From contig CAIJMI010000005.1 in NCBI GenBank assembly GCA_903821745.1, positions 199,802 through 263,801 on the forward strand: a stretch of 64,000 bases of DNA, read 5' to 3'. This document shows positions 14,787 through 57,323 of this stretch, piece after piece. The translations under genes were made by a program, and so were the position numbers. Positions within the stretch are counted from its first letter, which is position 1, and every line of letters begins with the position of its first letter. The notes under the pieces are model-generated. The model saw nothing but the letters and a program-made list of their open reading frames with translations, was not told the DNA's origin and did not search any database. Source of the DNA: Candidatus Gottesmanbacteria bacterium (GTDB taxonomy: Bacteria > Patescibacteriota > Microgenomatia > UBA10105 > UBA927).

Positions 14787-14844
14787 TCTACACCAATTGC
14801 AGGTTCCATTGACACCCCGACACTATCCGTGAAAGAATAGACGT

Positions 14845-15219: not shown

Positions 15220-15220
15220 A

Positions 15221-35950: not shown

Positions 35951-36048
35951 ACATACTTTTCCTTACACTCTATCTACTATTCACGATTTGTTCATCCCTG
36001 TCAAATCGTTTGACAAAAGTTCATATACCCAATACGATTACATACATT

Positions 36049-37815: not shown

Positions 37816-37824
37816 GCACTTCTT

Positions 37825-38163: not shown

Positions 38164-38203
38164 ATATTGATTAATATAGCACTAGGATCCGCTAAACGCA
38201 AAT

Positions 38204-38515: not shown

Positions 38516-38552
38516 AGCATATCAACAAAAATTGTCAATAAAACGGAAACTA

Positions 38553-39125: not shown

Positions 39126-39276
39126 AAGTGGGTGTGCATGGAATCGGACCATGTGCCTCTTTCTTATCAGGAAAGCGTTCTACCGATGAACTACACACCC
39201 GGTAAGGTTTTAGTAACTTCAGTCTTCCATTGTACTATAGCTACCCACTATGCATCAATCAGGGTCAATAAACGTG

Positions 39277-39348
39277 AGGCGCGTGCCGGAATCGAACCGG
39301 CGCATAGAAGTTTTGCAGACTCCCGCGTTACCTCTTCGCCAACGCGCC
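39277..39348 (-). tRNA. tRNA-Cys (GCA)
   Basis: The reverse complement reads GGCGCGT-TGGCGAAGAGGTAACGC-GGGAGT-CTGCAAA-ACTTC-...-GGTTCGATTCC-GGCACGCGCC-T. This gives a 7-bp acceptor stem, a GGTTCGATTCC T-arm and a GCA anticodon in a 7-nt loop; CCA is not encoded. Confidence 0.75.
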
Positions 39349-39431: not shown

Positions 39432-40097
39432 ATGACAACAACACTCGTTATTTGTTGTAAAAACGAAGCCCCATCACTTGCTGCTGTCATCAATAAGGCA
39501 AAGCCGTACGTACATGAAATAATTGTCATCGATGGTCATTCAACCGATGGATCACGCACTATTGCCAAAAATGCAGGAGTAAAAGTATTTGAAGATAATG
39601 GAAAAGGCAAAGGAGCAGCAATACAACTGGGTATACAGAAAGCATCAGGAGACATCATCATATTTATGGATGCAGATGGCTCACATAAAGCGTCTGATAT
39701 CCCAAAACTTACTAAACCAATACATAAAAACAAAGCAGACCTTGTTATTGCATCGCGTGGAATTGGTGGCAGTAACGAACTACACGGGGATTTTGAAAAA
39801 ACATTGCGTCTTATCGGGAGTGCCATCATTACTCAAATAATTAACTGGCGGTACCATGCTCATATTACTGATTCCCAAAATGGATTTCGAGCAATTCGTC
39901 GCTCTGTTGCAAAATCACTGAATCTCCAAGCAAATAGTTTCGCTATCGAACAAGAAATGCTAATGCAAATTTTAAAACGTAATGCAAAAGTTAGTGAAAC
40001 AGGAAGTCATGAATTTGCACGTAAGTATGGAAATTCAAAAATTAATCTTCCAAGAATGTGGTATAAATACTTAATTAATTTAATACAAAATCTATAA
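39432..40097 (+). CDS. GT2 glycosyltransferase (DPM1/ArnC-like polyprenyl-phosphate sugar synthase)
   Basis: VICCKNEAPSL...IIVIDGHSTDGS...IIFMDADGSH, the DxD-containing GT-A fold pattern; 221 aa, a short soluble form. Confidence 0.8.
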   Translation: MTTTLVICCKNEAPSLAAVINKAKPYVHEIIVIDGHSTDGSRTIAKNAGVKVFEDNGKGKGAAIQLGIQKASGDIIIFMDADGSHKASDIPKLTKPIHKNKADLVIASRGIGGSNELHGDFEKTLRLIGSAIITQIINWRYHAHITDSQNGFRAIRRSVAKSLNLQANSFAIEQEMLMQILKRNAKVSETGSHEFARKYGNSKINLPRMWYKYLINLIQNL

Positions 40098-40132
40098 ATT
40101 AACTTGTACATTACAATGCACTTTCGTTCGTT

Positions 40133-41242
40133 TCAATAAAATGCATTATCTTTATTAACAATATTAACTACGATATTATAAAGAGAAAAAGCAATTCTAG
40201 CTTGGGATTCTTGATACAAATGCATTATGTCCATAAACATTGTTTCCTCTACGTTGGCAACGGCTGAAGATAGATCAACAAAGTAAACATTCTTATTACC
40301 CATAGCGTCAACGACTCGTTTCTTCATATCACGAAACCACTCCTGTTCTGTTGACATCACTAATGGTTTTTCTTCATCGGTTAAATACAATTTGTCATAC
40401 AAAATTGGCTGCAATATCGCAATATACTCACTTCCAAACGCATGACTTATTTTGTGGGCTTTTTGTAAATTATCACTGTATACGGAAATAATAGTATTTT
40501 TCCATGATTCTGAACCGTACATAGCCTCATTACGTATTTGTGTGAGAGGAACAAATTGATTCAGATACCATTCAGGAGCAAATCGTTCCGCAAAAAACTG
40601 AACAACCGGTAACTTAGATATAAAAAACTTCCAGATTGACATTCTTTCAGGATAAAGCAATGGACTAACCTCATACATCATATAATCATATGGATAACCT
40701 GGTCTTGGATCATAATATAAAGGGTGATACAAATCGTTTACTCCATCATATTGAATAATAAGATCTGGCTGTAAATTAGAGAGATTTGTTACGATAGTCA
40801 TTAATTCTTGAGAAGACACAGCAGAAATAACCCCAAAATTATACACTCGTACATTATAATATCCTCGTTTATGAAATTCTTCTTCAAGTAAAACTGGTAA
40901 AGACGGATCTCCTATGTATACTGTTGATCCACCCAATATACATATTCTGTATTCATCTACGGGTTTCGGTACAACAGGATATGGACCGCGATATCCTTCT
41001 TGATTATGATCTTCCCAATACGGAAGTCCTTTAAACATAATATATGGGTATGGAATCTTATAGGTATCTGTACGAAAACGTTCCTGTACAGGGTTACGAA
41101 TGCTAAGATACGCACTAAAAATAATGTTGATAATGGAAAAAAATAATATTATAGCGATCACAACTGCACTAATTTTCCCCAAAAGCGCTATCCAATAAGA
41201 TGTTTTTTTCTCTTTAAATAATCGTTTAGGTACGAAAAACAT
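40133..41242 (-). CDS. Membrane-anchored SGNH/GDSL-family hydrolase (paralog 1 of 5)
   Basis: N-terminal TM; block I ILGGSTVYIG, block III QYDGVNDL (GxND), block V DIMHLY (DxxH). Confidence 0.6.
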   Translation of the reverse strand: MFFVPKRLFKEKKTSYWIALLGKISAVVIAIILFFSIINIIFSAYLSIRNPVQERFRTDTYKIPYPYIMFKGLPYWEDHNQEGYRGPYPVVPKPVDEYRICILGGSTVYIGDPSLPVLLEEEFHKRGYYNVRVYNFGVISAVSSQELMTIVTNLSNLQPDLIIQYDGVNDLYHPLYYDPRPGYPYDYMMYEVSPLLYPERMSIWKFFISKLPVVQFFAERFAPEWYLNQFVPLTQIRNEAMYGSESWKNTIISVYSDNLQKAHKISHAFGSEYIAILQPILYDKLYLTDEEKPLVMSTEQEWFRDMKKRVVDAMGNKNVYFVDLSSAVANVEETMFMDIMHLYQESQARIAFSLYNIVVNIVNKDNAFY

Positions 41243-41297
41243 ATTGTATCTACATATATTCTTTTTCTTTAATATTTTATACTATAACATAGAATAT

Positions 41298-42773
41298 ATT
41301 ATGTCATTTACGAGGAGTTCGAGAAAATCACTATTCTCCATTCATACATACGAAAAAGCAATGTTTTGTCTCTGTGTGCTACACATTTTTTTAAGACTAC
41401 CTCTTCGAACTATGATTCCATTTAATGACGGGAATGTGTACTATGCAACAGTTTTTAACATTATCCAGAATAACCTCAATCCATTTATTTTTACAATATC
41501 ATATAAACCACCAGTCATTAGCGAGCTCATGGCTATTATTTTCTCGGTATTCCATCCATCTATCGTCATTGGAAACATAGCAATGTATATCATTTCATCC
41601 GTAACGTTATGGTATATATATCTTCTCGGGAAACGTGTATTTACTCCAGTTGTTGGTTTTTATGCCGCGTTACTATGTTCCTTATTTCCTCTTTTTACTG
41701 CTCAAAGCGTTGTTTTTAACGACGCCGTTATTGTCACAACTGTTGTTCTTGCTACGGTCTATTATTTCTTTTCATCTAATTGGATTGGGTATGGCATTGC
41801 CTGTTCGCTTCTTGTCTTAACAAAAGAACCACTTCTCGCTGTCCCTGTATTGCTCTATATATACTCCGTCATATATACATTTCAAAAATCACATACATCA
41901 TTTCTCACAATACTGATAAAACGAATTCCACTCCTTTTTCCACTTATATTATTTCCGATATGGATGTATATAAATAAACAAACACTCGGTATATATCTGG
42001 ATCCGATAAACCAAAACAAATCGTATCTACATCGTTTTTACGGAGCGCCCATTCAAGAAATCTTAAAATATCTTTTTGTTAAAAATGGCATGTGGTGGAT
42101 ATGGTTAACATTCGGTGTAACACTACTTAAACACTCAAACAGGATAAAAAAACAATGGATCATCATTATGTGGTTCATAACGATTTTTTTGTTCTACGGA
42201 ATATTCTTTTCTCTAAGCGCCTTTAATCCAAGATACATGCTCCCATATTTTCCATATGTTTTCATAAGCTTTTGTGCTGTACTGTTCTTCGCATATTCCA
42301 AAAAATTTTTTCGACTCTTTATACTCCTAACAGTTATTATGTTCCTCGGAATACATATCAATCTCTTTTTCTTCAACGTATCTGATGGCTGGGGAGAAGG
42401 TGATTTACGTATTATTCAAACAACGTCTCTTTATACAAAAACTTTTGAGTATGTCTACGAACATTACCAACATCCTCTCATCGTCACCTATCCTGAAGTG
42501 TATACGTGGAGCGATACTGCATTTGGAAAAACTCCAGGCGCATACAAATATGAATGTTACTTTTTTAATCAAATTAATGATGAGAAAGAAGAAATGCAAC
42601 GCATGTTCACCTATGCAAAAGAAAAAAATGCGTCTCCTATTATCTTTATTCAACCAAGTTACATGGGTGAAGTAAACGAAATAAACGCAATACGAAAATT
42701 GCCTATTAAACGAATTAATAATCCGTGGAATAAATATAACTATCACGACTTATACGAAATTGCAGTACAATAA
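41298..42773 (+). CDS. GT-C fold glycosyltransferase, ArnT/PMT(PMT_2)-like (paralog 1 of 3)
   Basis: Polytopic. First extracytoplasmic loop FNDGNVYYA...NPF...YKPPV resembles the ArnT/PMT DExxYA...KPPL signature; about 12 TMs. Start at the internal Met (41298) to leave a divergent promoter; the ORF begins at 41244. Confidence 0.5.
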   Translation: MMSFTRSSRKSLFSIHTYEKAMFCLCVLHIFLRLPLRTMIPFNDGNVYYATVFNIIQNNLNPFIFTISYKPPVISELMAIIFSVFHPSIVIGNIAMYIISSVTLWYIYLLGKRVFTPVVGFYAALLCSLFPLFTAQSVVFNDAVIVTTVVLATVYYFFSSNWIGYGIACSLLVLTKEPLLAVPVLLYIYSVIYTFQKSHTSFLTILIKRIPLLFPLILFPIWMYINKQTLGIYLDPINQNKSYLHRFYGAPIQEILKYLFVKNGMWWIWLTFGVTLLKHSNRIKKQWIIIMWFITIFLFYGIFFSLSAFNPRYMLPYFPYVFISFCAVLFFAYSKKFFRLFILLTVIMFLGIHINLFFFNVSDGWGEGDLRIIQTTSLYTKTFEYVYEHYQHPLIVTYPEVYTWSDTAFGKTPGAYKYECYFFNQINDEKEEMQRMFTYAKEKNASPIIFIQPSYMGEVNEINAIRKLPIKRINNPWNKYNYHDLYEIAVQ

Positions 42774-43833
42774 ACAAGATATGCAACGATTACTCGCCAG
42801 CGTACTACCTGTTCTCCAATCAAATTTCAAAAGACTTCCCCATCCATATAAATTAACCTTTGCAATAACCTATCGGTGTAACTCACGATGTACCATTTGT
42901 AATATCTGGAAAAAACCGCATTTCCCTGAAATGACGCTTGATAACATCAAAAAATTTTTCACCGCTAATCCTTACTTTCGCTGGGTAAATTTAACAGGAG
43001 GAGAAGTATTTTTACGACCTGATCTTATTGAGATTATCAAGATAATTCTTCATACACAAAAAAATCTATATTTTTTAAACTTTCCAACAAACGGCATCAT
43101 GACAAAACAGATTGTTAAACAATTACAACAAATTCTTAATCTTAATCCACCCCATTTCATTGTATCTATCTCTCTTGACGGTCCCAAAACAACACATGAT
43201 ACGCTTCGTGGAATAACAGGAAACTGGGAAAAGGCAGTAAAAACTTATAAAGAATTAAAGAAACTACGATCCAGTCATTTTGACACCTATTTCGGAATGA
43301 CACTCTCTCATTATAATAATGGACTCATCGAACAAACTTATGAGGAACTAAAAAAAGCCATCCCCTCACTTAAGCGGTCTGATATTCACTTCAATATTGC
43401 CCATCATTCATCTCATTATTATGGAAATACTGCTCAAGACGGAAACGTCAACATAAAAACAATAGAGCATCTTGATGCGTACAACAAAAAAAAGAGCTTT
43501 GTGTTAACAAAAATATCGTTCATAGAATATGTTTACCAACGCCACATAAAACAATATCTCACAACAAAAAAAACACCTCTCCCATGTCTTGCGCTCTCAA
43601 GTTCAGTATTTCTTAACCCCTATGGCATGATTTATCCATGCTCCATGTGGAATATGCCTCTTGCCAATATTCAAGATATTAATTATGATCTCCAAGCGCT
43701 CTGGAATACAAAAAAAACAAAACAGGCAAGAATCCTCATTGCGCGAAAAAAATGTTCAAATTGCTGGACACCATGTGAAGCATATCAAAGCATCTTGGGC
43801 AATATGTTTACATCTGAAGTATGGGAAAAATAA
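42760..43833 (+). CDS. Radical SAM protein with C-terminal SPASM/twitch-like Cys cluster
   Basis: CNSRCTIC (Cx3Cx2C) at residues 40-47 and a C-terminal Cys cluster ...PCLA...YPCS...CSNCWTPCEAY; 357 aa. Confidence 0.8.
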   Translation: MQYNKQDMQRLLASVLPVLQSNFKRLPHPYKLTFAITYRCNSRCTICNIWKKPHFPEMTLDNIKKFFTANPYFRWVNLTGGEVFLRPDLIEIIKIILHTQKNLYFLNFPTNGIMTKQIVKQLQQILNLNPPHFIVSISLDGPKTTHDTLRGITGNWEKAVKTYKELKKLRSSHFDTYFGMTLSHYNNGLIEQTYEELKKAIPSLKRSDIHFNIAHHSSHYYGNTAQDGNVNIKTIEHLDAYNKKKSFVLTKISFIEYVYQRHIKQYLTTKKTPLPCLALSSSVFLNPYGMIYPCSMWNMPLANIQDINYDLQALWNTKKTKQARILIARKKCSNCWTPCEAYQSILGNMFTSEVWEK

Positions 43834-45296
43834 CATTTCCCCGCGTACAACGACTTCTTCTTATCAATCCCTACGCAGGGTATGCACAAGGAACAAATGA
43901 ATCGACTGTATATCCTCCCATCGGACTTTCTTATGTTGCAGCCAGCGCTGAACAATGTGGCGTACACTGTAACATTATTGATGCCGCAGCACTAAAATTA
44001 CCGATAAAATCGTTGTTTGCCACAATTAAAGCATTTGTACCCGATTGTATTGGTATTACGAGTAACATTGTTACCGCTGAAGCAGCAATTCAAACTGGGA
44101 AAGAGATACATGCACGGTTTCCAACAATTCCCCTTATTTTTGGTGGTCCTTATGCAACGGCATATCCTGAATATATCTTAAAACAAACACAAGGCTATCT
44201 TGTTATTCGAGGAGAAGCAGAAGAAACTATCAAGGAACTTCTATCCAGACGCGTTTCTCTTTCATCAATACGTGGTATTTCATATAAAAAGGGACGTAGA
44301 TATATACACACAAATCAACGCCCATTAATTCAGGATATCAACACAATTCCCTTCCCCGCTTACCATTTACTCCCTCCACTATCCGTATATAAATCAAGAA
44401 ATAGAAAAACACCAATAGGCGTCATCCTCTCAAGTCGTGGATGTCCCTATCAATGTATTTATTGCAATGCAAATATTTTTGGAAAACAATTTCGCCCAAG
44501 AAGTGTCGATAATGTATTAAAAGAAATAGATATATTAGTTACTACATATCACATCAAACAACTAGATGTTTTAGACGATAATTTTACATTACTTATTGAG
44601 AGAGCTGAAGCAATTTTTGACGGTATTATTAAAAATAAGTTTAACATTCGTATCAATCTTCAAAACGGCGTACGAGCAGATCGACTTAGCCCACGGCTTA
44701 TTCGAAAAATGAAACAGGCAGGTGTCTACAAAGCCACCATAGGCGTAGAATCAGCCGATCTCCACATACAAAAAACCATAAAAAAAACATTGTCACTTCC
44801 AAAGGTTGTATGGGCAATCAAACAATTTCGCAAATACGATATTATTACTGCGTGCACATTTATCTTCGGCCTACCTGGAGAAACAAAGAAAACCATTGAA
44901 AAAACAATAGCATTTGCTATACGCGCTAACCCACATATGGCAAATTTTTCTGCTCTTGTTCCTTTACCGCAAACAGCAGTATACGAAATGATTCAAAAAA
45001 ATGGAACATTTCTCCGGCCTATCGAGCATGGATTACCAACTGGTTTTATCACAAACACATTATATTTTAAACTTGACGCAATAAATCAAGAATTGATTTC
45101 ATTCGCCATGTCTTCTGCTTTTCGACTTTTTTACTTCAGAATTTCAAAACTTATAGATTTATCCAAAACAATCCGTTCGTGGGGAGAATTTACTTGGAGT
45201 CTTTCTATGATTTACGGAGTGATAAAAAATATTAATATTTTTCCATCAACAAAAATATTTTCGCGTTATTTATTACATGAAAGTGAGATATGCTGA
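43821..45296 (+). CDS. B12-binding (class B) radical SAM protein
   Basis: N-terminal B12-binding Rossmann region (LLINPY...YPPIGLSYVAA...IGITS), then SSRGCPYQCIYC (Cx3Cx2C). 491 aa; overlaps the preceding rSAM gene by 13 nt. Confidence 0.8.
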   Translation: MGKITFPRVQRLLLINPYAGYAQGTNESTVYPPIGLSYVAASAEQCGVHCNIIDAAALKLPIKSLFATIKAFVPDCIGITSNIVTAEAAIQTGKEIHARFPTIPLIFGGPYATAYPEYILKQTQGYLVIRGEAEETIKELLSRRVSLSSIRGISYKKGRRYIHTNQRPLIQDINTIPFPAYHLLPPLSVYKSRNRKTPIGVILSSRGCPYQCIYCNANIFGKQFRPRSVDNVLKEIDILVTTYHIKQLDVLDDNFTLLIERAEAIFDGIIKNKFNIRINLQNGVRADRLSPRLIRKMKQAGVYKATIGVESADLHIQKTIKKTLSLPKVVWAIKQFRKYDIITACTFIFGLPGETKKTIEKTIAFAIRANPHMANFSALVPLPQTAVYEMIQKNGTFLRPIEHGLPTGFITNTLYFKLDAINQELISFAMSSAFRLFYFRISKLIDLSKTIRSWGEFTWSLSMIYGVIKNINIFPSTKIFSRYLLHESEIC

Positions 45297-46300
45297 ATTT
45301 CTGAAACTAGTATTTGTGCTATACGGTTGTGGCCTGCTTCAGCGACGTGGCACTCATCGACTAACTCATTAGAATATGAATCTAAAAACAACTGTTCTAA
45401 ATCAACAAATGGAACCTGTTCTTTCTGAGCGACAACCCGTAATAAGGCATTATATTTCGGAACAGATGCACGCCAATTATCTGACGCTGTTTGAGAAACG
45501 TCACCGTGTAAGCGGGTTAGTAATAACACTGACGTTCCCTGAGACCGAGCAATTCGGATAAACTCCTCTATATTATGTACATAGTCTGAGTAAGAAACCC
45601 TTGATACGTTACCTTGCGTTTTTCGAAACACAAGACTCACCTTATCAGAATAATAAAATATCACTTGAAACAAACGAGATATTGACAATGGCGTAATAAT
45701 GCCGGAAAGAAATGAATGGAACTCGTTATCTGGAATTCCCATAGCCGGAGCTGCATCATTCCAACCAAAAGATATAATAATTAGGGATGGATGAAATACA
45801 AATACATCTTGTTTAAATTTCTCCAGCCCTTGATACGATGAGTATCCCATCACTCCCATATTTAAAACACGAAACGGTGTGGATTGATCTTTTAAATAGG
45901 AAGCGAGTACTTCTGGCCATGGAGTATCAACATATCTGCCAGGAATAATCCCTAACGTATTCGAATCTCCATACGTGAGGATAGTACATCCTGAAACGGT
46001 TGCTATATTTTCTTGTATCGATGATCCGCGAATACCCAACTCATTAAATACTCCCCAATTCTTTTTTGGTTTCCAAAATAACACAGGGTCATATTCTAAA
46101 TCAGAGTCATTTTCAGAAAGTACAAAATCCAAACGCAGTTCTTCTTTTTCAACACGCTCTTTTTTTAGTTCTATCGGTTTGTAGTATGAAAGAATATGAA
46201 ACGCGGTAAGTATACGAGCAATACATTCAAAACCAACAAAAAGCAAAATGAAAAAACAAACCCCAAGAATAACAGATAGTATTTTTTCTTTATATGTCAT
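45266..46300 (-). CDS. Membrane-anchored SGNH/GDSL-family hydrolase (paralog 2 of 5)
   Basis: N-terminal TM; block I ILTYGDSNTLG, block III FGWNDAA, block V DECHVAEAGH. Confidence 0.7.
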   Translation of the reverse strand: MTYKEKILSVILGVCFFILLFVGFECIARILTAFHILSYYKPIELKKERVEKEELRLDFVLSENDSDLEYDPVLFWKPKKNWGVFNELGIRGSSIQENIATVSGCTILTYGDSNTLGIIPGRYVDTPWPEVLASYLKDQSTPFRVLNMGVMGYSSYQGLEKFKQDVFVFHPSLIIISFGWNDAAPAMGIPDNEFHSFLSGIITPLSISRLFQVIFYYSDKVSLVFRKTQGNVSRVSYSDYVHNIEEFIRIARSQGTSVLLLTRLHGDVSQTASDNWRASVPKYNALLRVVAQKEQVPFVDLEQLFLDSYSNELVDECHVAEAGHNRIAQILVSEIQHISLSCNK

Positions 46301-46348
46301 ACAGTTATTATATACATATAAGACTAATCACATGAACACGCTAACCAT

Positions 46349-47677
46349 ATGATATCAAAGAAAAAAAATATAATCTCATTTCTTCACAATATACCTGTAC
46401 GCCTCTTGATTCTTTCTCTTATACTTGGAATAGCAGCATTTACTCCTTTGTTTGCTTATACCTATCCTAATATAGATACCATAACTGACGTTTTTAATGC
46501 AGGAAAAACTATTCCTGACATAGCAATATTTTTTGATTTTACAGGAAGATATAGGGCTTCATGGACGTTATTTGCAACAGTGTTGAACGCAATTTTTTCC
46601 TATCACATTCGTTGGTATTTTTTACTGTATGGTGTCGCACTTGGCGTAACATTGTGGACTATGTTCATGCTTGTGTACCAAAAAAATAAGAGAGTACAAC
46701 ATGAACTACTTATTATTCCAGTATTGATGCTCTTAAACAACATCACTGTAGCAACGTATTGGAGATTAGGTGCATGTGAATCAATATTTACATTGATCCT
46801 AATATGGAGTGTTCTATGCATACAGCAAAAACGGTATACGTTGTGCATTCTATCTCTCCTGTCATTAATTCCATTAAAAGAAATATCAATTATCGTTCTT
46901 CTTATAACTAGTGTTTATATGTTTGTCATAAAAAAATATAGATATGCACTTATTTTATTTATAAGTTCCGCTATGTATGGATTATTCATAAAACATTTCA
47001 TTGCAGAAAGTCTTACCGAAGCAACAACGCCATATTTTCTCACGTTTACATTTACCAGTACTAGGCTTATTGAAATGTTTCATACGTGGGGATTCAAAAT
47101 ACCGTTTGTTTTTATTTTAAGTGGCATCAACACGTTACTTCTCATCATTCATCAAATTGAATTTAAACGGGTAGCGAATATACCACTTTATCTCCTTATA
47201 TTAAGCGTCGGATTACTTTCTCCATATCTCTTTCTTGCGTACACAGAAGAATATTATCTTTTTCCCTCCTATACATGTTCCATACTATGTTTTACTTACT
47301 TAAGTACAACGACACTACAACGTAAAAAACATATACAGTTAGGAATTCTCGTTGGAAGTTGTATATTATTTTTCTACAGCCAATCACATAAAGCATTCAT
47401 TCAACAAGCTTCTTTAATGCATCAAGCGTATATTCAACATACCAAATTAATTGAACGTATGTTTCAATATCCATACTATTTCTATCAACGACAATACAAT
47501 AAAACAGTTACAGAAGATGCATTTACTTCTTGGGTAAATACACAAAACGGTACAAATCAAGATAATACCTCTTTACGAGCAATTGTACATGAATCCCCTA
47601 CACAATCTGAATATAATGGAGCAATGTGGTACGGACCAGATAACGCGTGGGGTATTGAATACATCACCAATAATTAG
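46349..47677 (+). CDS. Polytopic membrane protein, unknown function (possibly polymerase/ligase-like)
   Basis: 442 aa with more than 10 predicted TM helices and a soluble C-terminal tail; no motif recognised. Confidence 0.5.
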   Translation: MISKKKNIISFLHNIPVRLLILSLILGIAAFTPLFAYTYPNIDTITDVFNAGKTIPDIAIFFDFTGRYRASWTLFATVLNAIFSYHIRWYFLLYGVALGVTLWTMFMLVYQKNKRVQHELLIIPVLMLLNNITVATYWRLGACESIFTLILIWSVLCIQQKRYTLCILSLLSLIPLKEISIIVLLITSVYMFVIKKYRYALILFISSAMYGLFIKHFIAESLTEATTPYFLTFTFTSTRLIEMFHTWGFKIPFVFILSGINTLLLIIHQIEFKRVANIPLYLLILSVGLLSPYLFLAYTEEYYLFPSYTCSILCFTYLSTTTLQRKKHIQLGILVGSCILFFYSQSHKAFIQQASLMHQAYIQHTKLIERMFQYPYYFYQRQYNKTVTEDAFTSWVNTQNGTNQDNTSLRAIVHESPTQSEYNGAMWYGPDNAWGIEYITNN

Positions 47678-49371
47678 CAAATATAGTTTTTTTTATGATT
47701 CTTCCTTGTTTTCTTAAAAAATAACACTACTTCATAAATCATACACAAAGAAAATATACCCATCAGTGGATACACCGGGGAAACATATAAAAGTGCATCC
47801 AACTCAAAACAAATAGATTCAATATAACTTATTAAGGTTATCAAAAACATCATGCTCATACCCATCCCAATGATAAACAAATCATATTTATTCATATTTT
47901 TTGTTACAATTTTATGTCTTATTGTAACGATGAAACACAAAATTCCTATACTAAAAAGAACACATCCAATCATCCTAAATAAACGTTGAAACATTCCAAT
48001 AACGACGGTGTGAATTCCTGTTGACTGTATAAGACTACCTTCTGTTTCTTGATCACTGTGATACTTGGTTGTTACTATATGTCCCGTTACAGATTTGGTT
48101 AAGTCAATGTCAGCGATATCACCAGTGCTTTCGTTTGTCAATGTGCCAATTGTATCTAATGATGGAATCCTAAATACTAATCTTGTCACCGACTGTAAAA
48201 ACAACACACTATATTCCATATGAAATTGAGGAATTAAATCGAACGGCCATGCAGTGCATTCTAAAGATTTGTTTTTACATGCATATACTAGTTCTTTATG
48301 AATTTCTTGAAAGAACGTATTTGCGATTTTGTAGGAAGGATAATATCCAAGCCTAAAAGCTGCATCACGTATATCAAATATTAAATTTGCACCCGATATT
48401 TCGTTCGTAGCGATAGTAAAACTGCTTTTGTGTGGAGAAGTTCTATACGTCTCATTTATTAGTTCTTCAACAATTTTAAAATGAGGACTCACGAGCGCCG
48501 CCTTATGCAATGTCAATTTTGATATCGTAGCGTGCCTGATGGGAGTCTCTTGCTTTATTCGAATCAAATCACCGTATACTTTTGTGTATGCTGATTGTTT
48601 TAATTCATTTATGACAAACGTACCATAGTAAAATTTGTTTACACAACTAACAATACACACAAACAATATACCAACAAAATATCCAAATAACACTGTACGG
48701 AAAAACACTGGATGTAAATGTTTACGAAATATATATGTAGAGAGACAATGTCCTATTGGAACAAGATACAAAGGGATAAACCACATAAATTCTTCACGAG
48801 TCAAATAGAACATTGCGCTGAATATACCGAATCCTAATGCCCAAAGTGCATGCTTAAAGCTCCGTTGTTTTTCACTGGCCAACAGTCCGAATATACATGC
48901 AACCGTTCCGATTGTTAAAGACGAGTAAAAATGATGTCGTGTAACACGTTCTGCGATTTGATAAGAAAAAGGGTTAAAAAGAACAAAAAGAAAAACGATA
49001 AATGAACATGCTGTATTATATTTTTTCTTTAACGCAAAAAACAATAAACACGTAGCAAAAATATACAACACTTGTTGACTTTGTAATAAAGGAATGTGAC
49101 TAAAATTAGAAAAGGCTATAAACATTGGATACATTGGTCCTTTTGCCAACGTCATTTCGCTATACTTCCCTAACCATTCTCCATGTATCAATGCATTCGC
49201 CAATTTAATAAACAACATGTCATCAAACCATGAACCACCAACTGCAATTAACATCTGAGTAGAACTCAACCAATAACGAAACAGTATTACACTACCAAAC
49301 AACAATAGAAATAGTATTTTCTTGTACTTTCTTAAAAAGAAGGAGCAATTATGTTTCATACCCTTCCACAT
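47674..49371 (-). CDS. GT-C fold glycosyltransferase, ArnT/PMT-like (paralog 2 of 3)
   Basis: 565 aa. Loop 1 WFDDMLFIKLANALIHGEWLGKY...TLAKGPMYP (DD-x-x-F...GEW...KGP) matches the ArnT DExRYAE...GDW...EKPP architecture. Clearly homologous to the 54629-56302 ORF. Confidence 0.55.
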   Translation of the reverse strand: MWKGMKHNCSFFLRKYKKILFLLLFGSVILFRYWLSSTQMLIAVGGSWFDDMLFIKLANALIHGEWLGKYSEMTLAKGPMYPMFIAFSNFSHIPLLQSQQVLYIFATCLLFFALKKKYNTACSFIVFLFVLFNPFSYQIAERVTRHHFYSSLTIGTVACIFGLLASEKQRSFKHALWALGFGIFSAMFYLTREEFMWFIPLYLVPIGHCLSTYIFRKHLHPVFFRTVLFGYFVGILFVCIVSCVNKFYYGTFVINELKQSAYTKVYGDLIRIKQETPIRHATISKLTLHKAALVSPHFKIVEELINETYRTSPHKSSFTIATNEISGANLIFDIRDAAFRLGYYPSYKIANTFFQEIHKELVYACKNKSLECTAWPFDLIPQFHMEYSVLFLQSVTRLVFRIPSLDTIGTLTNESTGDIADIDLTKSVTGHIVTTKYHSDQETEGSLIQSTGIHTVVIGMFQRLFRMIGCVLFSIGILCFIVTIRHKIVTKNMNKYDLFIIGMGMSMMFLITLISYIESICFELDALLYVSPVYPLMGIFSLCMIYEVVLFFKKTRKNHKKNYIC

Positions 49372-49431
49372 GAAAATTATTCCTAATATTACTAATGTAT
49401 CGCATCTAGTCAGAAATAACTAATGTGTATC

Positions 49432-49465
49432 CACAAAAAATCCCGCGTGCAAAGCGGGATAAGAA
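49432..49465 (-). terminator. Intrinsic terminator downstream of the 16S rRNA
   Basis: The minus strand reads ATCCCGC-TTTGCAC-GCGGGAT-TTTTTG: a 7-bp GC-rich stem, 7-nt loop and U-tract, about 195 nt downstream of the 16S 3' end. Confidence 0.7.
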
Positions 49466-49658
49466 ACGAAAACAGTAAATACTTGATGCACTAGACGGTG
49501 ACAGGAACTTAGGGTTTTTGAGAGAACTATTCTGCTCGAGAATAGTTTATATATACGCACTCTCTCAAGAGATGCGTGTCAAAATCTAACGACACTCTTC
49601 ATATAGTGGAATGATTGCTCATTCATGTATGCTTTGTTGTCTTCGATTTTTTAATTAG

Positions 49659-51143
<1,485 letters not shown>

Positions 51144-51228
51144 AAATTTCCTATCACCGTTTAATTCACCAAGATATTTACTGTACTGACTATACTGCTT
51201 GCAAATATGTTAACGAGCAAAAAGAGAG

Positions 51229-51254
51229 AAAAAAAGCCCCGCCTTGTGCGGGGT
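51229..51254 (-). terminator. Intrinsic terminator-like hairpin about 90 nt upstream of the 16S 5' end (insulator or leader structure)
   Basis: The minus strand reads CCCCGC-ACAAG-GCGGGG followed by CTTTTTTT. Confidence 0.5.
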
Positions 51255-51394
51255 TCATACCCAAAAACACGAAGCGAATTGGCTTACTTTCTCATTGCAA
51301 ATGTCAATTATACGGGAAGGGGTAATCTGCGTCAATCCCCAATGTATTTATGGCTAAATTTACAAACGGAAGCATATACGATACACTAAATACT

Positions 51395-51547
51395 ATGTTT
51401 CAAACCATGAAGCAATTACTCATACTTGCTATCCATTCGAAAAAAATTTGGATTATTCCCATTATCCTCTTTCTCATTATTATCGCCCTTCTTATTATCA
51501 GCGCGCAAATAAGCCCCCTGCCTGTCTTCCTCTACCCGATTTTATGA
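51395..51547 (+). CDS. Small hydrophobic single-TM protein (about 50 aa)
   Basis: MFQTMKQLLILAIHSKKIWIIPIILFLIIIALLIISAQ... Its TGA stop overlaps the ATG of the next small ORF (ATGA coupling). Confidence 0.35.
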   Translation: MFQTMKQLLILAIHSKKIWIIPIILFLIIIALLIISAQISPLPVFLYPIL

Positions 51548-51732
51548 ACGTCATAAAAAAGTTAAACACATTGTTTATAGCATTCAGTGTTGGAATTATC
51601 TACGTTTTTATCATTGGTTTAGCGTGGATCATATATCGGCTGACCCAACATGTTTCTTCAGTTTCAGATAGCTATTGGTTGATACCAGAAAAGAAAAAAT
51701 TACCTAAACACTTTTTTTCATCACCCTATTAA
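51544..51732 (+). CDS. Small single-TM protein (62 aa) immediately upstream of the carbamoyltransferase
   Basis: MNVIKKLNTLFIAFSVGIIYVFIIGLAWIIYRL... It ends 2 nt before the carbamoyltransferase start. Confidence 0.4.
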   Translation: MNVIKKLNTLFIAFSVGIIYVFIIGLAWIIYRLTQHVSSVSDSYWLIPEKKKLPKHFFSSPY

Positions 51733-51733
51733 T

Positions 51734-53431
51734 ATGATCATTCTTGGAATATCAGCGTTTTATCACGACAGCGCAGCAGCCCTTATTGTCAATGGAAAAG
51801 TTGTGGCCGCACTTGAAGAAGAACGGTTCACGAGAATTAAACATGATAATCAATTCCCTATCAATGCAATAACGCGTCTGCTTCAAATAACAAACTACAC
51901 CATTGATGACGTAGACGTGATTGCGTATTATGAAAAACCGCTCTTAAAATTTGAGCGGCTGCTTGAAACGTTTGTAACGACCTATCCATATGCCCTCCGA
52001 CCGTTTCTCAAATCCATTCCTGACTGGTTGGGATCAAAAATTACCGTTGAACATATCATACGAAAAAAATTGCACTTCAAAAAGGAAATTATGTTTGTTC
52101 CCCATCATCTTTCCCATGCTGCATCATCCTTTTTTACGTCCCCGTTTACCCATGCGGCAATCCTCACTATAGACGGTGTTGGTGAATATGAAACAACAGG
52201 ACTTTGGTCTGCAAAAAACAATTCCCTCACTCACCTTGCAGCAATCAATTTCCCCCATTCTATTGGCCTTTTGTATTCGACATTCACAGCATTTCTCGGA
52301 TTTAAAATCAATGAAGATGAATATAAAGTCATGGGACTGGCTGCGTATGGAAAACCGACGTATGAAGATAAAATACGCCAACTCATCGACATAAAACCCG
52401 ATGGCAGTTTTTATCTCAATACAGCATATTTCGGATTTGTAACATCATTTTGCATGTGGAATAAAAAATTTGAATCACTGTTTGGTACCCCACGAAAGTC
52501 ACACGAAGTGGTCAAAAAACGCCACAAAGACCTTGCTGCAAGTCTCCAAAAGATAACAGAAGAAATCCTGTTTGCCATGATCAACCATCTCGCAAACATA
52601 ACAAAAGAAAAAAATCTTTGTATGAGTGGCGGTGTGGCACTCAATGCACTTGCAAACGGAAAACTCTATAAAAACACGCCATTCAGAAGAATTCATATTT
52701 TAGGGAGCGCGAGTGATAGTGGAACAGCAATCGGCGCAGCGCTCTATGTCTACTATAATTTTTTTGGATCGCCGATCAGTCGTCACGAACCACTTGCATC
52801 ACTTGCGCTTGGGACAAGTCCAAGTGATGAGGAAGTCGAACGTGTGCTTTCACAATATTCAACACTCACCTATCAAAAAATTGCAGATGAACAAACACTC
52901 ATCAAAAAAGCAGCAACACTGCTCGCACAGCATAAAATAATCGGATGGTTTCAAGGACCAATGGAATTTGGGCCACGTGCACTTGGCAACAGATCCATTG
53001 TAGCTGCAACCAATCCTCGAAGGATGAAAACGAAAATGAATATTATCAAACATCGGGAGCAATTTCGGCCGTTTGCGGGATCAGCGCTCCAGGAGACGAT
53101 TCATGAATATTTCGAAGTGCCACAAAACAAACATGCGTCGCCTTTTATGAATTTTTGCTTCAACGTAAAAAAACGCAAACAAGAAGCGCTTGCGGCAATT
53201 GTCCATCAGGATGCATCGTGTCGCATACAGACGGTATCACAGGCAAACGGAAGATATTACCGTCTTATTCAGGCATACGCAAAAAAAACGCATATTGATT
53301 GCATCATGAACACGAGTTTTAATCTTCAAGGCGAACCCATTGTTGAAACTCCAAGACAAGCAATTGAAGATTTTCTGAAAACACCGATGGATTATCTCAT
53401 CATTAATGATAATTTCATTTCGAAGCGCTGA
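51734..53431 (+). CDS. O-carbamoyltransferase (NodU/CmcH/TobZ family)
   Basis: N-terminal Kae1/YgjD-like domain MIILGISAFYHDSAAALIVNGKVVAALEEERFTRIKHD, HHLSHAASSFF, and a C-terminal YrdC-like carbamoyltransferase domain; 565 aa. Confidence 0.85.
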   Translation: MIILGISAFYHDSAAALIVNGKVVAALEEERFTRIKHDNQFPINAITRLLQITNYTIDDVDVIAYYEKPLLKFERLLETFVTTYPYALRPFLKSIPDWLGSKITVEHIIRKKLHFKKEIMFVPHHLSHAASSFFTSPFTHAAILTIDGVGEYETTGLWSAKNNSLTHLAAINFPHSIGLLYSTFTAFLGFKINEDEYKVMGLAAYGKPTYEDKIRQLIDIKPDGSFYLNTAYFGFVTSFCMWNKKFESLFGTPRKSHEVVKKRHKDLAASLQKITEEILFAMINHLANITKEKNLCMSGGVALNALANGKLYKNTPFRRIHILGSASDSGTAIGAALYVYYNFFGSPISRHEPLASLALGTSPSDEEVERVLSQYSTLTYQKIADEQTLIKKAATLLAQHKIIGWFQGPMEFGPRALGNRSIVAATNPRRMKTKMNIIKHREQFRPFAGSALQETIHEYFEVPQNKHASPFMNFCFNVKKRKQEALAAIVHQDASCRIQTVSQANGRYYRLIQAYAKKTHIDCIMNTSFNLQGEPIVETPRQAIEDFLKTPMDYLIINDNFISKR

Positions 53432-53434
53432 ACT

Positions 53435-54610
53435 ATGATCAAACAGGTTTTATACAGTATCATAGGCATGTGTATTGTTTTTGTACTCTCTGAACTTTTT
53501 CTTGGAGAAGCTAAAAAATTTTCTCCAAAATTACTTTTTTTTACAAAAAATCCATATCAGCAAAGCCGGTATGTGACCAATATTGACTGGCAAGGATTAT
53601 GGACATTGTCTAACTGCCCTACTCCACCAGAATTTGAATTATATGGATTTGTTTTAAATTCTAAAGGATTCAGGACTCCTGAAACTCCCTACCAAAAACC
53701 ATCAGATACGAAACGGTTAGTCCTACTTGGAGATTCTCAAGCTGTTGGACCAATTCCGTATAATCAATTATTTCTTAACCTATTAGAAAAAAACATTAGG
53801 GCAGAGTATCCAAAAAAATTTCAAGCTATTAATCTCGCATTGCCTTGCATAGGACCCCCCATTGAAGAGATACTGCTTTCTTTAGAAGGAATTCGATATC
53901 AGCCAGACATTATTGTACTTGCATTTTATGTAGGAAACGATTTTTTGGACGCAAATTTAGATATTGAACGGTACGCCAGTGAAAAAAATAAACAACCACA
54001 TATCCTCCCTTTTATATTCTATCAATCAAAACTCATATCGTTAACGCGAAATTTGTATTACACGTTTCGTTTTGGTCGAAAATCTATGATGACGAAGCAA
54101 ACTAAATCATCCCCTTCTTATGGCACGATGGGAATCGATGATTATTCGTCTTACAACCCTCATGAACCAACATTTCCATTGGAGGAATTTTTAGCTTTGG
54201 AAATGGACAAATCATCCATTCTATTACCACATAGCGACGTATACGCTTCATTACCGCAAATTCAGCAAAATATTAGCCATATGAAAGAATTAACTGAAAA
54301 AGCACGGGCACATTTTTTAGTTCTTATTATTCCAGAAGAAATGCAAGTAAATAGAGATCTATTGCATACAATAGCGTTGAAACAAAATATTCCAGTTGAT
54401 TCGTTTGATGTAGAATTGCCACAACGCGTGCTCAAGCAGTATTTCGACCAAAATCATATCAACTATATTGATCTATTGGAAATGTGGAAATCAGATACCT
54501 CAGCAATGCAGTATTTCCAACCGCAAGATACCCATTTAAACACCTTAGGTAACCAATCGGTTGCTCGTATTCTTTTTCCAGAAATAATAAAATTACTAAA
54601 CGAACAATAA
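53435..54610 (+). CDS. Membrane-anchored SGNH/GDSL-family hydrolase (paralog 3 of 5)
   Basis: N-terminal TM; LVLLGDSQAVGP (block I), YVGNDFLD (block III), QDTHLNTLGN (block V). Confidence 0.65.
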   Translation: MIKQVLYSIIGMCIVFVLSELFLGEAKKFSPKLLFFTKNPYQQSRYVTNIDWQGLWTLSNCPTPPEFELYGFVLNSKGFRTPETPYQKPSDTKRLVLLGDSQAVGPIPYNQLFLNLLEKNIRAEYPKKFQAINLALPCIGPPIEEILLSLEGIRYQPDIIVLAFYVGNDFLDANLDIERYASEKNKQPHILPFIFYQSKLISLTRNLYYTFRFGRKSMMTKQTKSSPSYGTMGIDDYSSYNPHEPTFPLEEFLALEMDKSSILLPHSDVYASLPQIQQNISHMKELTEKARAHFLVLIIPEEMQVNRDLLHTIALKQNIPVDSFDVELPQRVLKQYFDQNHINYIDLLEMWKSDTSAMQYFQPQDTHLNTLGNQSVARILFPEIIKLLNEQ

Positions 54611-54628
54611 AAAATACGCTGCATATCC

Positions 54629-56302
54629 ATGAAGAAACCAAAAGTCATTCAGAGAAATACTACTATCGTTTCGACTATTCTTTTTATTATGATAATCGTA
54701 TCACTCACAGTGTTTCGTGTATGGTTGATTAAAAATAGAGAACTAGTTGCCATTACTCCCTCACCTCACGATATGCAGCTGTATATAACAAACGCTGAAT
54801 CCATTGCGAATGGAAATTGGCTTGGTCCATATAATGAACGAATTATTACGAGAGGACCCGTATTCCCACTGTTTATTGCAATAACATATCTTCTTCATAT
54901 TCCGCTTACCATAGCACAGACACTCCTCTATTGTGCCGCAGCATTTTTATTTCTCGGTTGTGCGATACCGTTGGTAAAAAAGAAATGGATCCTGATACCG
55001 CTCTATACGCTCATTTTATTTAATCCTTTTATGATTGATCATGAAACTTTTTTTGAACTCACGCGATCTGCTTTATATCCAGCTCTCAGTATGGCAGTTG
55101 CAATGAGTTGTTTCGGCCTCGTTACTTCGGTACATACAGCGTATAAAAAAAGTGTATTCTATACATGCTCTCTTGGTATATTCTTTTTCCTCTTTTGGTA
55201 CTATCGGGAAGAAGGGTTTTTCTTACTTCCCCTCATTGGTGTATGTTATGGATATTCTTTGTGGATAACATGGAAACAAAAAAAAGTATCAAAAAAATAC
55301 GTCATAGCACTCATAATTCCCATTCTCATATTCCTTGGTGGAACACACATAGTAAGTTCCGTCAATAAAAAAACGTATGGGATATACACAGCACGAGAAT
55401 TTTCTTACCCGAGTTATACAAAAGCGTTTTCAGCATTGCTCCGCATTCAACCAGAAGAGCATAATCCACTCATCAGTCTGCCAAAATCGACAAGACAAAT
55501 ACTGTATGTGGTAAGTCCAACATTTGCAAAGCTCCGATCATTCTTTGAAGGAGAAGGTGGATATGATTGGGCACGCAACAGTGTTGTCTGGACAGGGATA
55601 CCACCGGAAGAGCATGAACTCGCCGGAGGCGCTTTTCATTTTGCCCTCCGTGACGCAATATGGCGGATCACGAGACCTTCACAAAAAAATGAACAACTGC
55701 TTTTCGAGAAACTCACCAAAGAAATCAATGCTGCGTGTAAGGCAAAATATATTTCCTGTGGTCTCTTACCAATTAGCGGATTTACTTTGTTTAATCAGGA
55801 AGATCGTGAACATTTTTATAATCAATTTGTGAACACCATACAAACAGGGGTGCTTGCCGATAACCTCGATCTCTCAACAACTCCCAAATATAGTCATGGA
55901 CCGGAAAATCAAATTGCACTATTTAAAAAAATGACAAGAGGAATTATTCTTACTGATAACCAACGACCTCCATATCAATCATCACTTGTGCCATTCACGA
56001 ACACATATATCCAATATTGGTATCAACAGTTCATGCCAATAATATTTTTGTTGTCGTATGTGTATTTTCTTATACGACTTTTCAAACAACAAAAACTTAC
56101 CTTCACCGATTGGTTTCAGGCCTCATTACTCCTTTGTTCACTATTATTTTACGGCGTAGTCGCATTCTTTGGAACAATTAAATCCCCAACCAATACAACC
56201 GCCAGCTCTTATACATCAGGGGCGTACGCATTATTGCTTCTCTTTGTGTGTTTAGAAATACTCACACTCCAAACCAAGCCTACTGTGAAACACAGGAAAT
56301 AA
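54629..56302 (+). CDS. GT-C fold glycosyltransferase, ArnT/PMT-like (paralog 3 of 3)
   Basis: 557 aa. Loop 1 PHDMQLYITNAESIANGNWLGPY...ITRGPVFP; homologous along its length to the 47674-49371 ORF (FNPF..., K.YG.YT..E...YTKA... blocks). Confidence 0.55.
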   Translation: MKKPKVIQRNTTIVSTILFIMIIVSLTVFRVWLIKNRELVAITPSPHDMQLYITNAESIANGNWLGPYNERIITRGPVFPLFIAITYLLHIPLTIAQTLLYCAAAFLFLGCAIPLVKKKWILIPLYTLILFNPFMIDHETFFELTRSALYPALSMAVAMSCFGLVTSVHTAYKKSVFYTCSLGIFFFLFWYYREEGFFLLPLIGVCYGYSLWITWKQKKVSKKYVIALIIPILIFLGGTHIVSSVNKKTYGIYTAREFSYPSYTKAFSALLRIQPEEHNPLISLPKSTRQILYVVSPTFAKLRSFFEGEGGYDWARNSVVWTGIPPEEHELAGGAFHFALRDAIWRITRPSQKNEQLLFEKLTKEINAACKAKYISCGLLPISGFTLFNQEDREHFYNQFVNTIQTGVLADNLDLSTTPKYSHGPENQIALFKKMTRGIILTDNQRPPYQSSLVPFTNTYIQYWYQQFMPIIFLLSYVYFLIRLFKQQKLTFTDWFQASLLLCSLLFYGVVAFFGTIKSPTNTTASSYTSGAYALLLLFVCLEILTLQTKPTVKHRK

Positions 56303-56339: not shown

Positions 56340-57323
56340 CTATAACATGTGACAGGATTTCAACATTCCGGAAGTTAACAATTGAAAAATAATTTGCGCG
56401 ATATGTGCATGTCCCAAAATATTCGGATGATAATCATGCGGTGCAAAGGTATCAACATCGCCTATTTCTGCATATGCAATATGCGCGTCAGCTGATAGAA
56501 AATGTTGCAATATTCTTTTATACTCTTGGGATTCATCTTGAAGCGTCAAAAATAATAATGGAGATGTCTTCTGTTGTATGAGCGTTCGTATTGCCGTAAG
56601 TTCGGGTTGAAGAAAGATTTCTTTCTTATCTGATGATAACCTGTTCAATGAATCCATATAGTCCTTATACGACAATGTTGATGCCGCATATGGGTCATTC
56701 ATGTCAACCTGATACCGCTTGGAGGCTCCGGTCTTTTGCAGTTCCTTTTTATAAAATTCTTCCCGTTCCCGATATATATCCGTATTCATAAATATATTTT
56801 CACCCCGCACAAACCATATCAGATAATCAGGATGATATTTGGCACCTATATCCTCATATCGTTTTGCAATATAGCGCACATCAAATCCGGGCGCACCTAA
56901 ATTAAGCACCTCAAATTTTTGAATGGTAGAACACGCTATTGTTGTATTTAACCGCGTCTCTAACAGTTCAGAAAAATTCTCATGTTGATTTACCCACATA
57001 CCAAAAACGAAAGAATCACCGAGTGTCATAATTCGAAATACTCCATCATCCTTTTTCACCGAATAGTCGATAGGATCCGCAAGGCCGTCACTATTGTAAT
57101 GATATGTTACTTTTTCTGGCAACCACGCAGCAGTTGCCACATCGTCAATATTTGTGGGAAAAAGATAATAATATTGAAATGTAGCATCAGGTGCGAACGT
57201 CAATAACAAACGAGGTAATGCATTGTGTTGCGGAAAAAACGGTTTTTTAAAAACATATTTCCAAATAAAAAAAATCGCAATCAACTCCATGGACACAGTT
57301 GCAATAAAAATATATTTTTTCAT
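56340..57323 (-). CDS. Membrane-anchored SGNH/GDSL-family hydrolase (paralog 4 of 5)
   Basis: N-terminal TM; RIMTLGDSFVFGMW (block I), LNLGAPGFD (block II), DYHPNILGH (block V). Confidence 0.6.
   Translation of the reverse strand: MKKYIFIATVSMELIAIFFIWKYVFKKPFFPQHNALPRLLLTFAPDATFQYYYLFPTNIDDVATAAWLPEKVTYHYNSDGLADPIDYSVKKDDGVFRIMTLGDSFVFGMWVNQHENFSELLETRLNTTIACSTIQKFEVLNLGAPGFDVRYIAKRYEDIGAKYHPDYLIWFVRGENIFMNTDIYREREEFYKKELQKTGASKRYQVDMNDPYAASTLSYKDYMDSLNRLSSDKKEIFLQPELTAIRTLIQQKTSPLLFLTLQDESQEYKRILQHFLSADAHIAYAEIGDVDTFAPHDYHPNILGHAHIAQIIFQLLTSGMLKSCHML

Follow-up and report, generated by a model that had tools for sequence, protein, structure and literature searches.

Introduction

Cells of every domain of life use glycosyltransferases of the GT-C type to decorate their envelopes. 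In one of them, ArnT, an outside-loop Asp and K-P-P-like residues have known roles, and the periplasmic domain is C-terminal; the eukaryotic protein O-mannosyltransferases (PMTs) carry an outside domain of ~200 residues between transmembrane (TM) helix 7 and the C-terminal helices. Polyprenyl-phosphate-sugar synthases that contain no TM helices are known, human DPM1 and PpgS among them, and both DPM1/Ppm1 and mycobacterial PpgS, a polyprenyl-phosphate-N-acetylgalactosamine synthase that goes with the GT-C enzyme Rv3779, are short TM-less GT2 proteins serving GT-C enzymes. RgtA, RgtB and RgtC of the rhizobial Rgt system are galacturonic acid (GalA) transferases. In the same system, the bactoprenyl-phosphate-GalA synthase RgtE is accompanied by several GT-C GalA transferases (among them RgtD and RgtF) that act at different positions (PMC7663294), the acceptors being the lipopolysaccharide core and lipid A. 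The three-component systems combine a GtrA flippase, the undecaprenyl-phosphate-glucose synthase GtrB and a serotype-specific GtrC-type GT-C enzyme, with a ribofuranose variant in GT136, a family of 2024 which illustrates that GT-C families are still being founded (PMC11127046). Here we analyze positions 39432–56302 of a 64,000-nucleotide stretch of DNA (the window) from a Candidatus Gottesmanbacteria bacterium (contig CAIJMI010000005.1), in which a GT2 gene is accompanied by three genes for polytopic GT-C-like proteins.

The GT-C-like genes of this interval comprise one member of the Pfam family PMT_2 and a pair from a different family that lacks annotation, for which we use the name family X. 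The interval probably belongs to a ~21-kb cell-envelope glycan locus (~39.4–60.9 kb) that follows the logic of three-component-type extracytoplasmic glycosylation, with GT-C enzymes from two families. The likeness to the Gtr-type systems lies in the presence, within one locus, of polytopic GT-C enzymes and a GT2 of the dolichol-phosphate-mannose synthase (DPMS)/GtrB/ArnC class, and in distant family X genes that stand beside GT2 genes with TM helices, one family X gene being fused to GtrA. The window differs in having no recognizable flippase, a GT2 that contains no TM helices, and three GT-C genes drawn from two families. The Rgt system provides a precedent for a single GT2 donor synthase that feeds several GT-C enzymes with different acceptor sites, but the Rgt enzymes are of the ArnT/PMT_2 type by sequence, and family X has no such Pfam match.

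Results and Discussion

Two families of GT-C-like enzymes in one locus

A reading of the DNA made from its letters alone (the sequence-only reading) had described the interval as one DPM1/ArnC-like GT2 and three ArnT/PMT-like GT-C paralogs. The four open reading frames (ORFs) that it named, at 39432, 41298, 47674 and 54629, are all present, and every motif string that it quoted is found at the checked coordinates. The second ORF is genuine with a misplaced start, as 41298–41300 reads ATT and the true ATG lies at 41301; the third, 47674–49371, had been given with no strand and lies on the minus strand.

Family X member A is a protein of 565 residues (47674–49371, minus strand), which the family profile matches with an E value of 5.6e-160 (as P0041), and member B is a protein of 557 residues (54629–56302, plus strand). 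In a BLASTP comparison of the two, 28% of 452 aligned residues are identical (E 8e-44), and the family profile spans both of them from about residue 10 to residue 545, in agreement with the earlier claim that they align along their whole length. Judged by these alignments, the two proteins are genuine paralogs. Member A is ~30% identical to family X members of distant bacteria and is therefore no recent duplicate. Indeed, a recent tandem duplication was considered and rejected, given the 28% identity and the fact that each protein is equally close to distant bacteria. The claim of three paralogs, on the other hand, does not survive the comparison: BLASTP finds nothing in common between the protein encoded at 41301 and the 47674 and 54629 proteins, and neither family's HMMER profile picks up the other family.

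The 41301 protein (490 residues, 41301–42773, plus strand) is a GT-C glycosyltransferase of the PMT_2 family, with a PF13231 score of 37.7 bits against a gathering cut-off of 26.1. It is identical to the database protein P0029 (490 residues), and eight of its relatives carry PF13231. Its motifs are FNDGNVYYA (41421–41447, plus strand), in which the loop-1 Asp is D43 of FNDGN, YKPPV (41502–41516, plus strand) and LTKEP (41817–41831, plus strand). The Asp after TM1 (P-[FY]-[NSE]-D; ND/ED) and the YKPP element are kept in all relatives that cover the region and, together with the Pfam score, they uphold the earlier call of an ArnT/PMT-like enzyme. HMMER searches against PDB sequences gave no GT-C match for this protein, either singly or as a family profile, and the same searches with the single proteins and profiles of both families found no GT-C enzyme; the 41301 protein is too diverged from ArnT and the PMTs for this method. 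A TTG start at 41244 was rejected for the gene: only 1 bp would then separate it from the divergent gene, and the database protein has the ATG at 41301 as its start. After the last TM helix comes a soluble C-terminal domain of ~115 residues (42384–42773). This domain opens with a conserved WGE-x-DL, and its resemblance to glutaredoxin is weak and nonsignificant (E 0.2–1.4).

The two families can be related to each other only weakly, at the level of profiles. In hhalign, an alignment of 127 family X sequences and one of 14 PMT_2 sequences match collinearly through 208 columns (score 41.4, E 3.3e-4, probability 38%). In this match, DD stands opposite D, KGP opposite KPP, TREE opposite TKE, and N-K-x-x-Y-G opposite N-K-x-x-x-G. 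Control alignments, one reversed and 20 block-shuffled, scored between 16 and 35. In this profile-profile alignment, the post-TM1 Asp occupies an equivalent position in both families, and so does the K/R-(G/P)-P element. The G-[EN]-W element that had been proposed as a third shared feature is not among them: opposite the invariant family X Trp, the 41301 family shows NNLNPF, and its own conserved WGE comes after the last TM helix.

Family X: modeled fold, topology and conserved residues

An AlphaFold2 model of member B, built from a 25-sequence alignment, has a predicted local distance difference test (pLDDT) score of 85 and a predicted template modeling (pTM) score of 0.85. It contains 10 TM helices, with both termini inside; seven of the helices are N-terminal and three C-terminal, the first loop also contains a short helix, and an all-helical extracytoplasmic domain of ~200 residues (residues ~251–452) is inserted between TM7 and TM8. 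Foldseek against the PDB places ArnT (5F15/5EZM) at the top (E 7e-5, probability 1.0), these being the only two matches below E 1e-3, and EmbC/A/B, AglB, STT3, PglB, ALG3, Pmt4 and Pmt1 follow; GT-C enzymes make up 14 of the top 20. The Foldseek probabilities are 0.9–1.0 for GT-C enzymes and at most 0.55 for other proteins, while the TM-scores (template modeling scores) are only ~0.3. Taken alone, this model-based evidence for a GT-C fold is not strong. Member A would have a GT-C-like fold as well, by extension from its paralog.

The conserved residues point in the same direction. Across 127 diverse family X relatives, D48 and W64 of member B are 100% conserved, and the residue that follows D48 is Asp in 88% of them; R193, E194, E195, N246 and P133 are conserved at 95–100%, and the K/R-G-P element at 82–87%. 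The family signature can be written as DD...W-L-G-x-Y...K-G-P...T-R-E-E...N. In member B, these elements are encoded on the plus strand as PHDMQLY (D48; 54764–54784), NGNWLG (W64; 54809–54826), TRGPVFP (R75; 54848–54868), YREE (55202–55216) and N246 (55364–55366), and in member A on the minus strand as WFDDMLF (49210–49230), HGEWLG (49168–49185), AKGPMYP (49126–49146) and TREE (48787–48801). The motifs quoted in the sequence-only reading thus recur in family X more than chance would allow.

The density of Lys and Arg by loop alternates in the 127 relatives, being ~0.22–0.29 on one side of the membrane and 0.02–0.15 on the other, which fits an N-in topology with D48, W64, K/R75, the R-E-E element, N246 and the ~200-residue domain outside. 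The one exception is the four-residue R-E-E loop, where the density is due to the conserved Arg. Model helices and charge pattern agree in placing the acidic motif on the extracytoplasmic side, and both family X proteins are polytopic, with a cytoplasmic N-terminus and conserved acidic residue(s) in the first outside loop, as in GT-C enzymes. With the motif outside, and with ArnT and other GT-C enzymes as the best solved matches of the model, the evidence is in favor of the 54629 and 47674 proteins being GT-C-like enzymes, as the sequence-only reading had supposed, insofar as a model can tell.

The architecture is related to that of described enzymes and is distinct from each of them. ArnT is the best solved match of member B, and the best matches of the GT2 include ArnC; ArnT also shares the outside-loop Asp and the K-P-P-like element after TM1. 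ArnT differs in that it has no sequence-level match to the window proteins, and a bacterium of the Candidate Phyla Radiation (CPR) has no lipid A; moreover, family X has 10 TM helices, with its soluble domain inserted before the last three of them. In carrying this domain of ~200 residues outside the membrane, after TM7 and ahead of the C-terminal helices, family X recalls the PMTs, of which Pmt4 and Pmt1 are in the Foldseek list, but its insert is all-helical and not a beta-trefoil MIR domain.

Family X is large. Searched against 1.84 billion representatives (clusters at 50% identity), its profile matches 5,070 with E values of 1e-3 or lower, of which 2,991 reach 1e-30 or lower, and most of the matches cover the full length; the members come from the CPR, Verrucomicrobia, Alphaproteobacteria and others. 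Where names are given, the members are called 'hypothetical protein', the sole exception being a Kaistia protein that UniRef names 'RgtA/B/C/D-like domain-containing'. Neither the 54629 nor the 47674 protein reaches the gathering score of PF13231 or PF02366, and literature searches on DUF5989, PF26629 and unclassified GT-C clans turned up no name for the family.

Variants of the architecture occur as well. An N-terminal extension that consists of a TM anchor and an outside domain of ~140 residues is common to P0015, P0044, P0045, P0064, P0068, P0107 and P0145, with P0038 and P0039 listed alongside; this outside domain might bind carbohydrate. GtrA was considered as the identity of the ~200-residue N-terminal extensions that many family X members have, and was rejected; the extensions form a group of their own (TM anchor plus ~140 residues), and only P0043 carries GtrA. 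Some family X proteins are tandem, double-length proteins of 1,350–1,490 residues, and P0141 is a fusion with FG-GAP repeats.

A candidate donor synthase

The GT2 (221 residues, 39432–40097, plus strand) matches PF00535 with an E value of 9e-28 and carries its DAD motif as MDADGSH (residues 79–85; 39666–39686, plus strand). Its best PDB match is the dolichol-phosphate-mannose synthase of P. furiosus (5MLZ, E 1.2e-14, residues 19–213 aligned), followed by ArnC, and among NCBIfam models AglJ ranks above PpgS and PpgS above dolichyl-phosphate-hexose transferase. The proposal of a DPM1/ArnC-like donor synthase thus stands as regards its closest structures and closest NCBIfam models, and fails as regards the TM helices, of which this protein has none. 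The missing helices would count only against its membership in the ArnC/GtrB subtype, and we regard the GT2 as probably a polyprenyl-phosphate-sugar synthase, a candidate assignment based on these matches. The comparison with PpgS is apt in that PpgS is the second-best NCBIfam match and GlmS is encoded beside the cluster in the window and in the related loci L014 and L015; it is limited by a score of 87 against 370 bits and by the fact that no small membrane partner gene was found.

The GT2 is coupled most securely to the PMT_2 enzyme at 41301. In both L014 and L015, a GT2 of 221–223 residues adjoins a PMT_2 gene, and this conserved adjacency supports the reading of the GT2 as donor synthase for the PMT_2 enzyme. 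In L015, one such GT2 has three PMT_2 paralogs around it, which shows that several GT-C genes with one synthase recur in this lineage. The GlmS-Dcd-GT2 synteny is likewise maintained in L014 and L015 and hints at an amino-sugar donor. Upstream of the GT2, the window has GlmS, two small ORFs of no recognized function, dCTP deaminase and two tRNA genes in that order (36010–39348), the tRNA genes lying on the minus strand (39129–39200 and 39277–39348).

The link between family X and synthases of this class comes from more distant genomes. In four of eight distant loci (L004, L006/7, L012 and L013), a DPMS-type GT2 gene lies directly beside the family X gene, and in L006 one GT2 is flanked by two family X genes. 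These GT2 proteins have ~395–409 residues and four C-terminal TM helices. The one adjoining the Kaistia family X gene is 29% identical to the window GT2 (E 6e-26), and the window GT2 and the four-TM GT2s share the same NCBIfam match pattern. In P0043, a GtrA domain (PF04138) is fused to family X, and the gene lies next to a four-TM GT2 and dTDP-sugar genes. The GT2 adjacency and the GtrA fusion together are the signature of three-component periplasmic glycosylation (PMC11127046). At other loci, the neighbors of family X are PMT_2, GT4 and GT2 genes or, for one distant member, an exosortase. A genome scan with a narrower alignment found only three close loci.

Proposed pathway and alternatives

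[quoted passage not shown] The lipid-linked sugar would then be flipped across the membrane, and the polytopic GT-C enzymes, with the fold, topology and motifs described above, would move the sugar to acceptors outside. The conserved Asp of the first outside loop may act as a base or metal ligand, and the Lys/Arg-(Gly/Pro)-Pro with which the next helix begins, likewise conserved, may bind the lipid phosphate. By analogy with the Rgt system, it is plausible that one donor serves all three transferases (PMC7663294). The carbamoyltransferase, the five SGNH proteins and the three radical S-adenosylmethionine (SAM) enzymes of the cluster, described below, would most likely tailor the same glycan or glycans.

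Several observations weigh against this pathway. Neither the 47674 nor the 54629 protein has a Pfam (E ≤ 1), NCBIfam or PDB sequence match, the same holds for 25 aligned relatives and 18 further family X members, and the hhalign probability that links family X to PMT_2 is only 12–38%. The GT2 scores below all NCBIfam equivalog cut-offs (AglJ 126.9 of 325, PpgS 87 of 370 and ArnC 41 of 529 bits) and, unlike ArnC, GtrB and archaeal DPMS, contains no hydrophobic segment in its 221 residues. The GT2 adjoins neither family X gene in the window, and the 54629-type gene lies downstream of the carbamoyltransferase gene in every close relative seen (L001, L003 and L014), with or without an SGNH gene in between. 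Finally, the window, where the small ORFs of the cluster were searched, yielded no recognizable flippase gene of the GtrA, Wzx or MATE-like kind, and no small multi-TM ORF as an equivalent of GtrA (PF04138).

Part of this evidence would be explained if the pathways were separate, with the GT2 serving the PMT_2 enzyme only and the family X enzymes using other lipid-linked donors made elsewhere. The conserved GT2-PMT_2 adjacency in L014 and L015 fits such an arrangement, as do the constant position of the 54629-type gene after the carbamoyltransferase and the nature of the 47674 gene, a window-specific low-GC insertion that is no closer to the 54629 gene than to those of distant bacteria. In a variant of this scheme, the donor or acceptor of the 54629 type could be tied to the carbamoyltransferase/DUF5989/SGNH operon, for example as a carbamoylated sugar. 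Only one DPMS-like GT2 was detected in the cluster, however, and a single synthase serves several GT-C enzymes elsewhere, as in L006, in L015 and in the Rgt system (PMC7663294). We therefore give separate pathways an appreciable probability, short of even, and prefer the shared three-component route. A further possibility is that family X uses polyprenyl-diphosphate-linked oligosaccharides, in the manner of an oligosaccharyltransferase, ligase or polymerase. AglB, PglB and STT3 do appear in the Foldseek list at E 0.01–0.05, the large outside domain could bind a polymer, and an exosortase adjoins one distant member; the best structural matches, however, ArnT and Emb, use monophosphate donors, the DPMS-type GT2 adjacency in four of eight loci and the GtrA fusion also point to monophosphate sugars, and the conserved columns contain no WWDxG-type oligosaccharyltransferase motif. 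A diphosphate donor thus seems unlikely.

The GT-C likeness of family X could also be a generic similarity of helical bundles, in which case the proteins would be no glycosyltransferases and would instead act as transporters or as a scaffold for the SGNH and carbamoyl functions. The TM-scores of ~0.3, the several non-GT-C membrane proteins lower in the Foldseek list and the missing Pfam, PDB and NCBIfam matches speak for this reading. The gap in Foldseek probability between GT-C enzymes and other proteins argues otherwise, as does the set of invariant outside-facing residues (Asp, Arg-Glu-Glu and Asn), which is typical of an active site. The collinear match to the PMT_2 profile, above all controls, and the specific genomic coupling to lipid-sugar synthases and to GtrA also speak against a transporter or scaffold, and we consider a nonglycosyltransferase role improbable. 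On balance, the three-component route, with GT-C enzymes from two families, is the reading that we favor.

Locus layout and the other genes of the cluster

The source stretch has a GC content of ~40%, and its closest public relatives are metagenome bins of the Microgenomates group (CPR). Housekeeping genes (rpsB-tsf-frr and nucleotide salvage) occupy the window upstream of ~36 kb, and the glycan-type cluster extends from GlmS (36010) to a PAP2 phosphatase (60338–60907) and TopA. From the GT2 onward, its first half contains an SGNH gene with a TM anchor, the PMT_2 gene, a SPASM radical SAM gene, a B12 radical SAM gene, a second SGNH gene and a gene for a polytopic protein of 442 residues; the second half contains the gene for the 565-residue polytopic protein (minus strand), a 16S rRNA gene, DUF5989, the carbamoyltransferase, a third SGNH gene, the gene for the 557-residue polytopic protein, two SGNH genes, a SpoU methylase and a second B12 radical SAM gene. 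The PAP2-family lipid phosphate phosphatase at the cluster edge (60338–60907, minus strand; PF01569, E 5e-25) may recycle the polyprenyl carrier.

GC content dips to 0.32–0.37 within 40–48 kb of the window. The convergent pair formed by the 46349 gene (plus strand) and the 47674 gene (minus strand) has the lowest value of the window, 0.315 at 46–48 kb, and is not present in the otherwise syntenic loci L001 and L014. On these two grounds, the segment 46349–49371 is probably variable or acquired.

The 46349 gene (46349–47677, plus strand) encodes a fourth polytopic protein within the interval, which the sequence-only reading did not mention. It has 442 residues and ~8–10 TM helices, and it has no Pfam, NCBIfam or PDB match. 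Its sole relative (P0028) is encoded beside PMT_2 and SPASM radical SAM genes in a second organism (L016). An hhalign comparison with PMT_2 aligned 44 columns around LKEISI/LTKEP at a probability of 7%, and an AlphaFold model from two sequences was discarded at a pLDDT of 42. The protein is a candidate flippase, polymerase or fourth GT-C enzyme.

A complete 16S rRNA gene (49659–51145, minus strand) stands alone in the middle of the cluster, with the 47674 gene on one side and the DUF5989/carbamoyltransferase operon on the other, and no 23S gene adjoins it. The same placement is seen in the related bin L001 (2988–4474, minus strand), and L014 has an unannotated gap of like size at that point (13949–16014). 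Between 16S and carbamoyltransferase, L001 (4576–6672, plus strand) and L014 (16014–17945, plus strand) encode a protein of 643–698 residues that has no Pfam match; it belongs neither to family X nor to PMT_2 and has no counterpart in the window.

The operon itself consists of a DUF5989 small membrane protein (51350–51547, plus strand; PF19451 29.6 bits, cut-off 27), a second small TM ORF (51541–51732, plus strand) directly before the carbamoyltransferase, and a NodU/CmcH-type carbamoyltransferase (51734–53431, plus strand; Carbam_trans_N E 3e-84, Carbam_trans_C E 1e-62). These genes lie upstream of family X member B and run in the same direction. No mention of DUF5989 was found in the literature searched. 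The order of the three genes presumably resembles the SxtI/SxtJ/SxtK arrangement.

Five SGNH/GDSL-like proteins are encoded in the cluster, each with one N-terminal hydrophobic segment that would serve as a TM anchor. The second (45266–46300, minus strand) and the fifth (57320–58312, minus strand) have strong Lipase_GDSL_2/ALGX matches, and the Pfam matches are weak for the first (40133–41242, minus strand), the third (53435–54610, plus strand) and the fourth (56340–57323, minus strand); one of the five has a weak AlgX-like match. All five probably act outside the cytoplasm as esterases or acyltransferases of glycans, and no partner acyltransferase of the MBOAT or AT3 type turned up in the cluster. 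The three radical SAM enzymes, whose genes are interleaved with the glycosyltransferase genes, comprise the SPASM enzyme (42760–43833, plus strand), whose gene follows the PMT_2 gene, as it does in L001, L014, L015 and L016, a B12-binding enzyme (43821–45296, plus strand), and a second B12-binding enzyme (58931–60334, plus strand).

Conclusions

The functional idea of the sequence-only reading, a donor synthase with several acceptor transferases, holds in outline. In its general form, the mechanism is a familiar one, and the locus contradicts none of it; what stands out is the large unannotated GT-C-like family, with an architecture of its own, to which two of the three membrane enzymes belong. 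More tentatively, and with less than even probability, family X may be an unclassified GT-C family that merits its own CAZy family, and its Microgenomates subfamily, in the carbamoyltransferase/DUF5989/SGNH operon, may make a surface glycan that is carbamoylated or acylated, by an undescribed route. To our knowledge, the envelope chemistry of CPR bacteria is essentially uncharted, and the locus offers a concrete list of enzymes for the building and tailoring of a surface glycan in these uncultivated organisms. Family X, which has members in cultivable organisms such as Kaistia dalseonensis (OSH11_05955), would give a probable function to thousands of membrane proteins now called 'hypothetical'.

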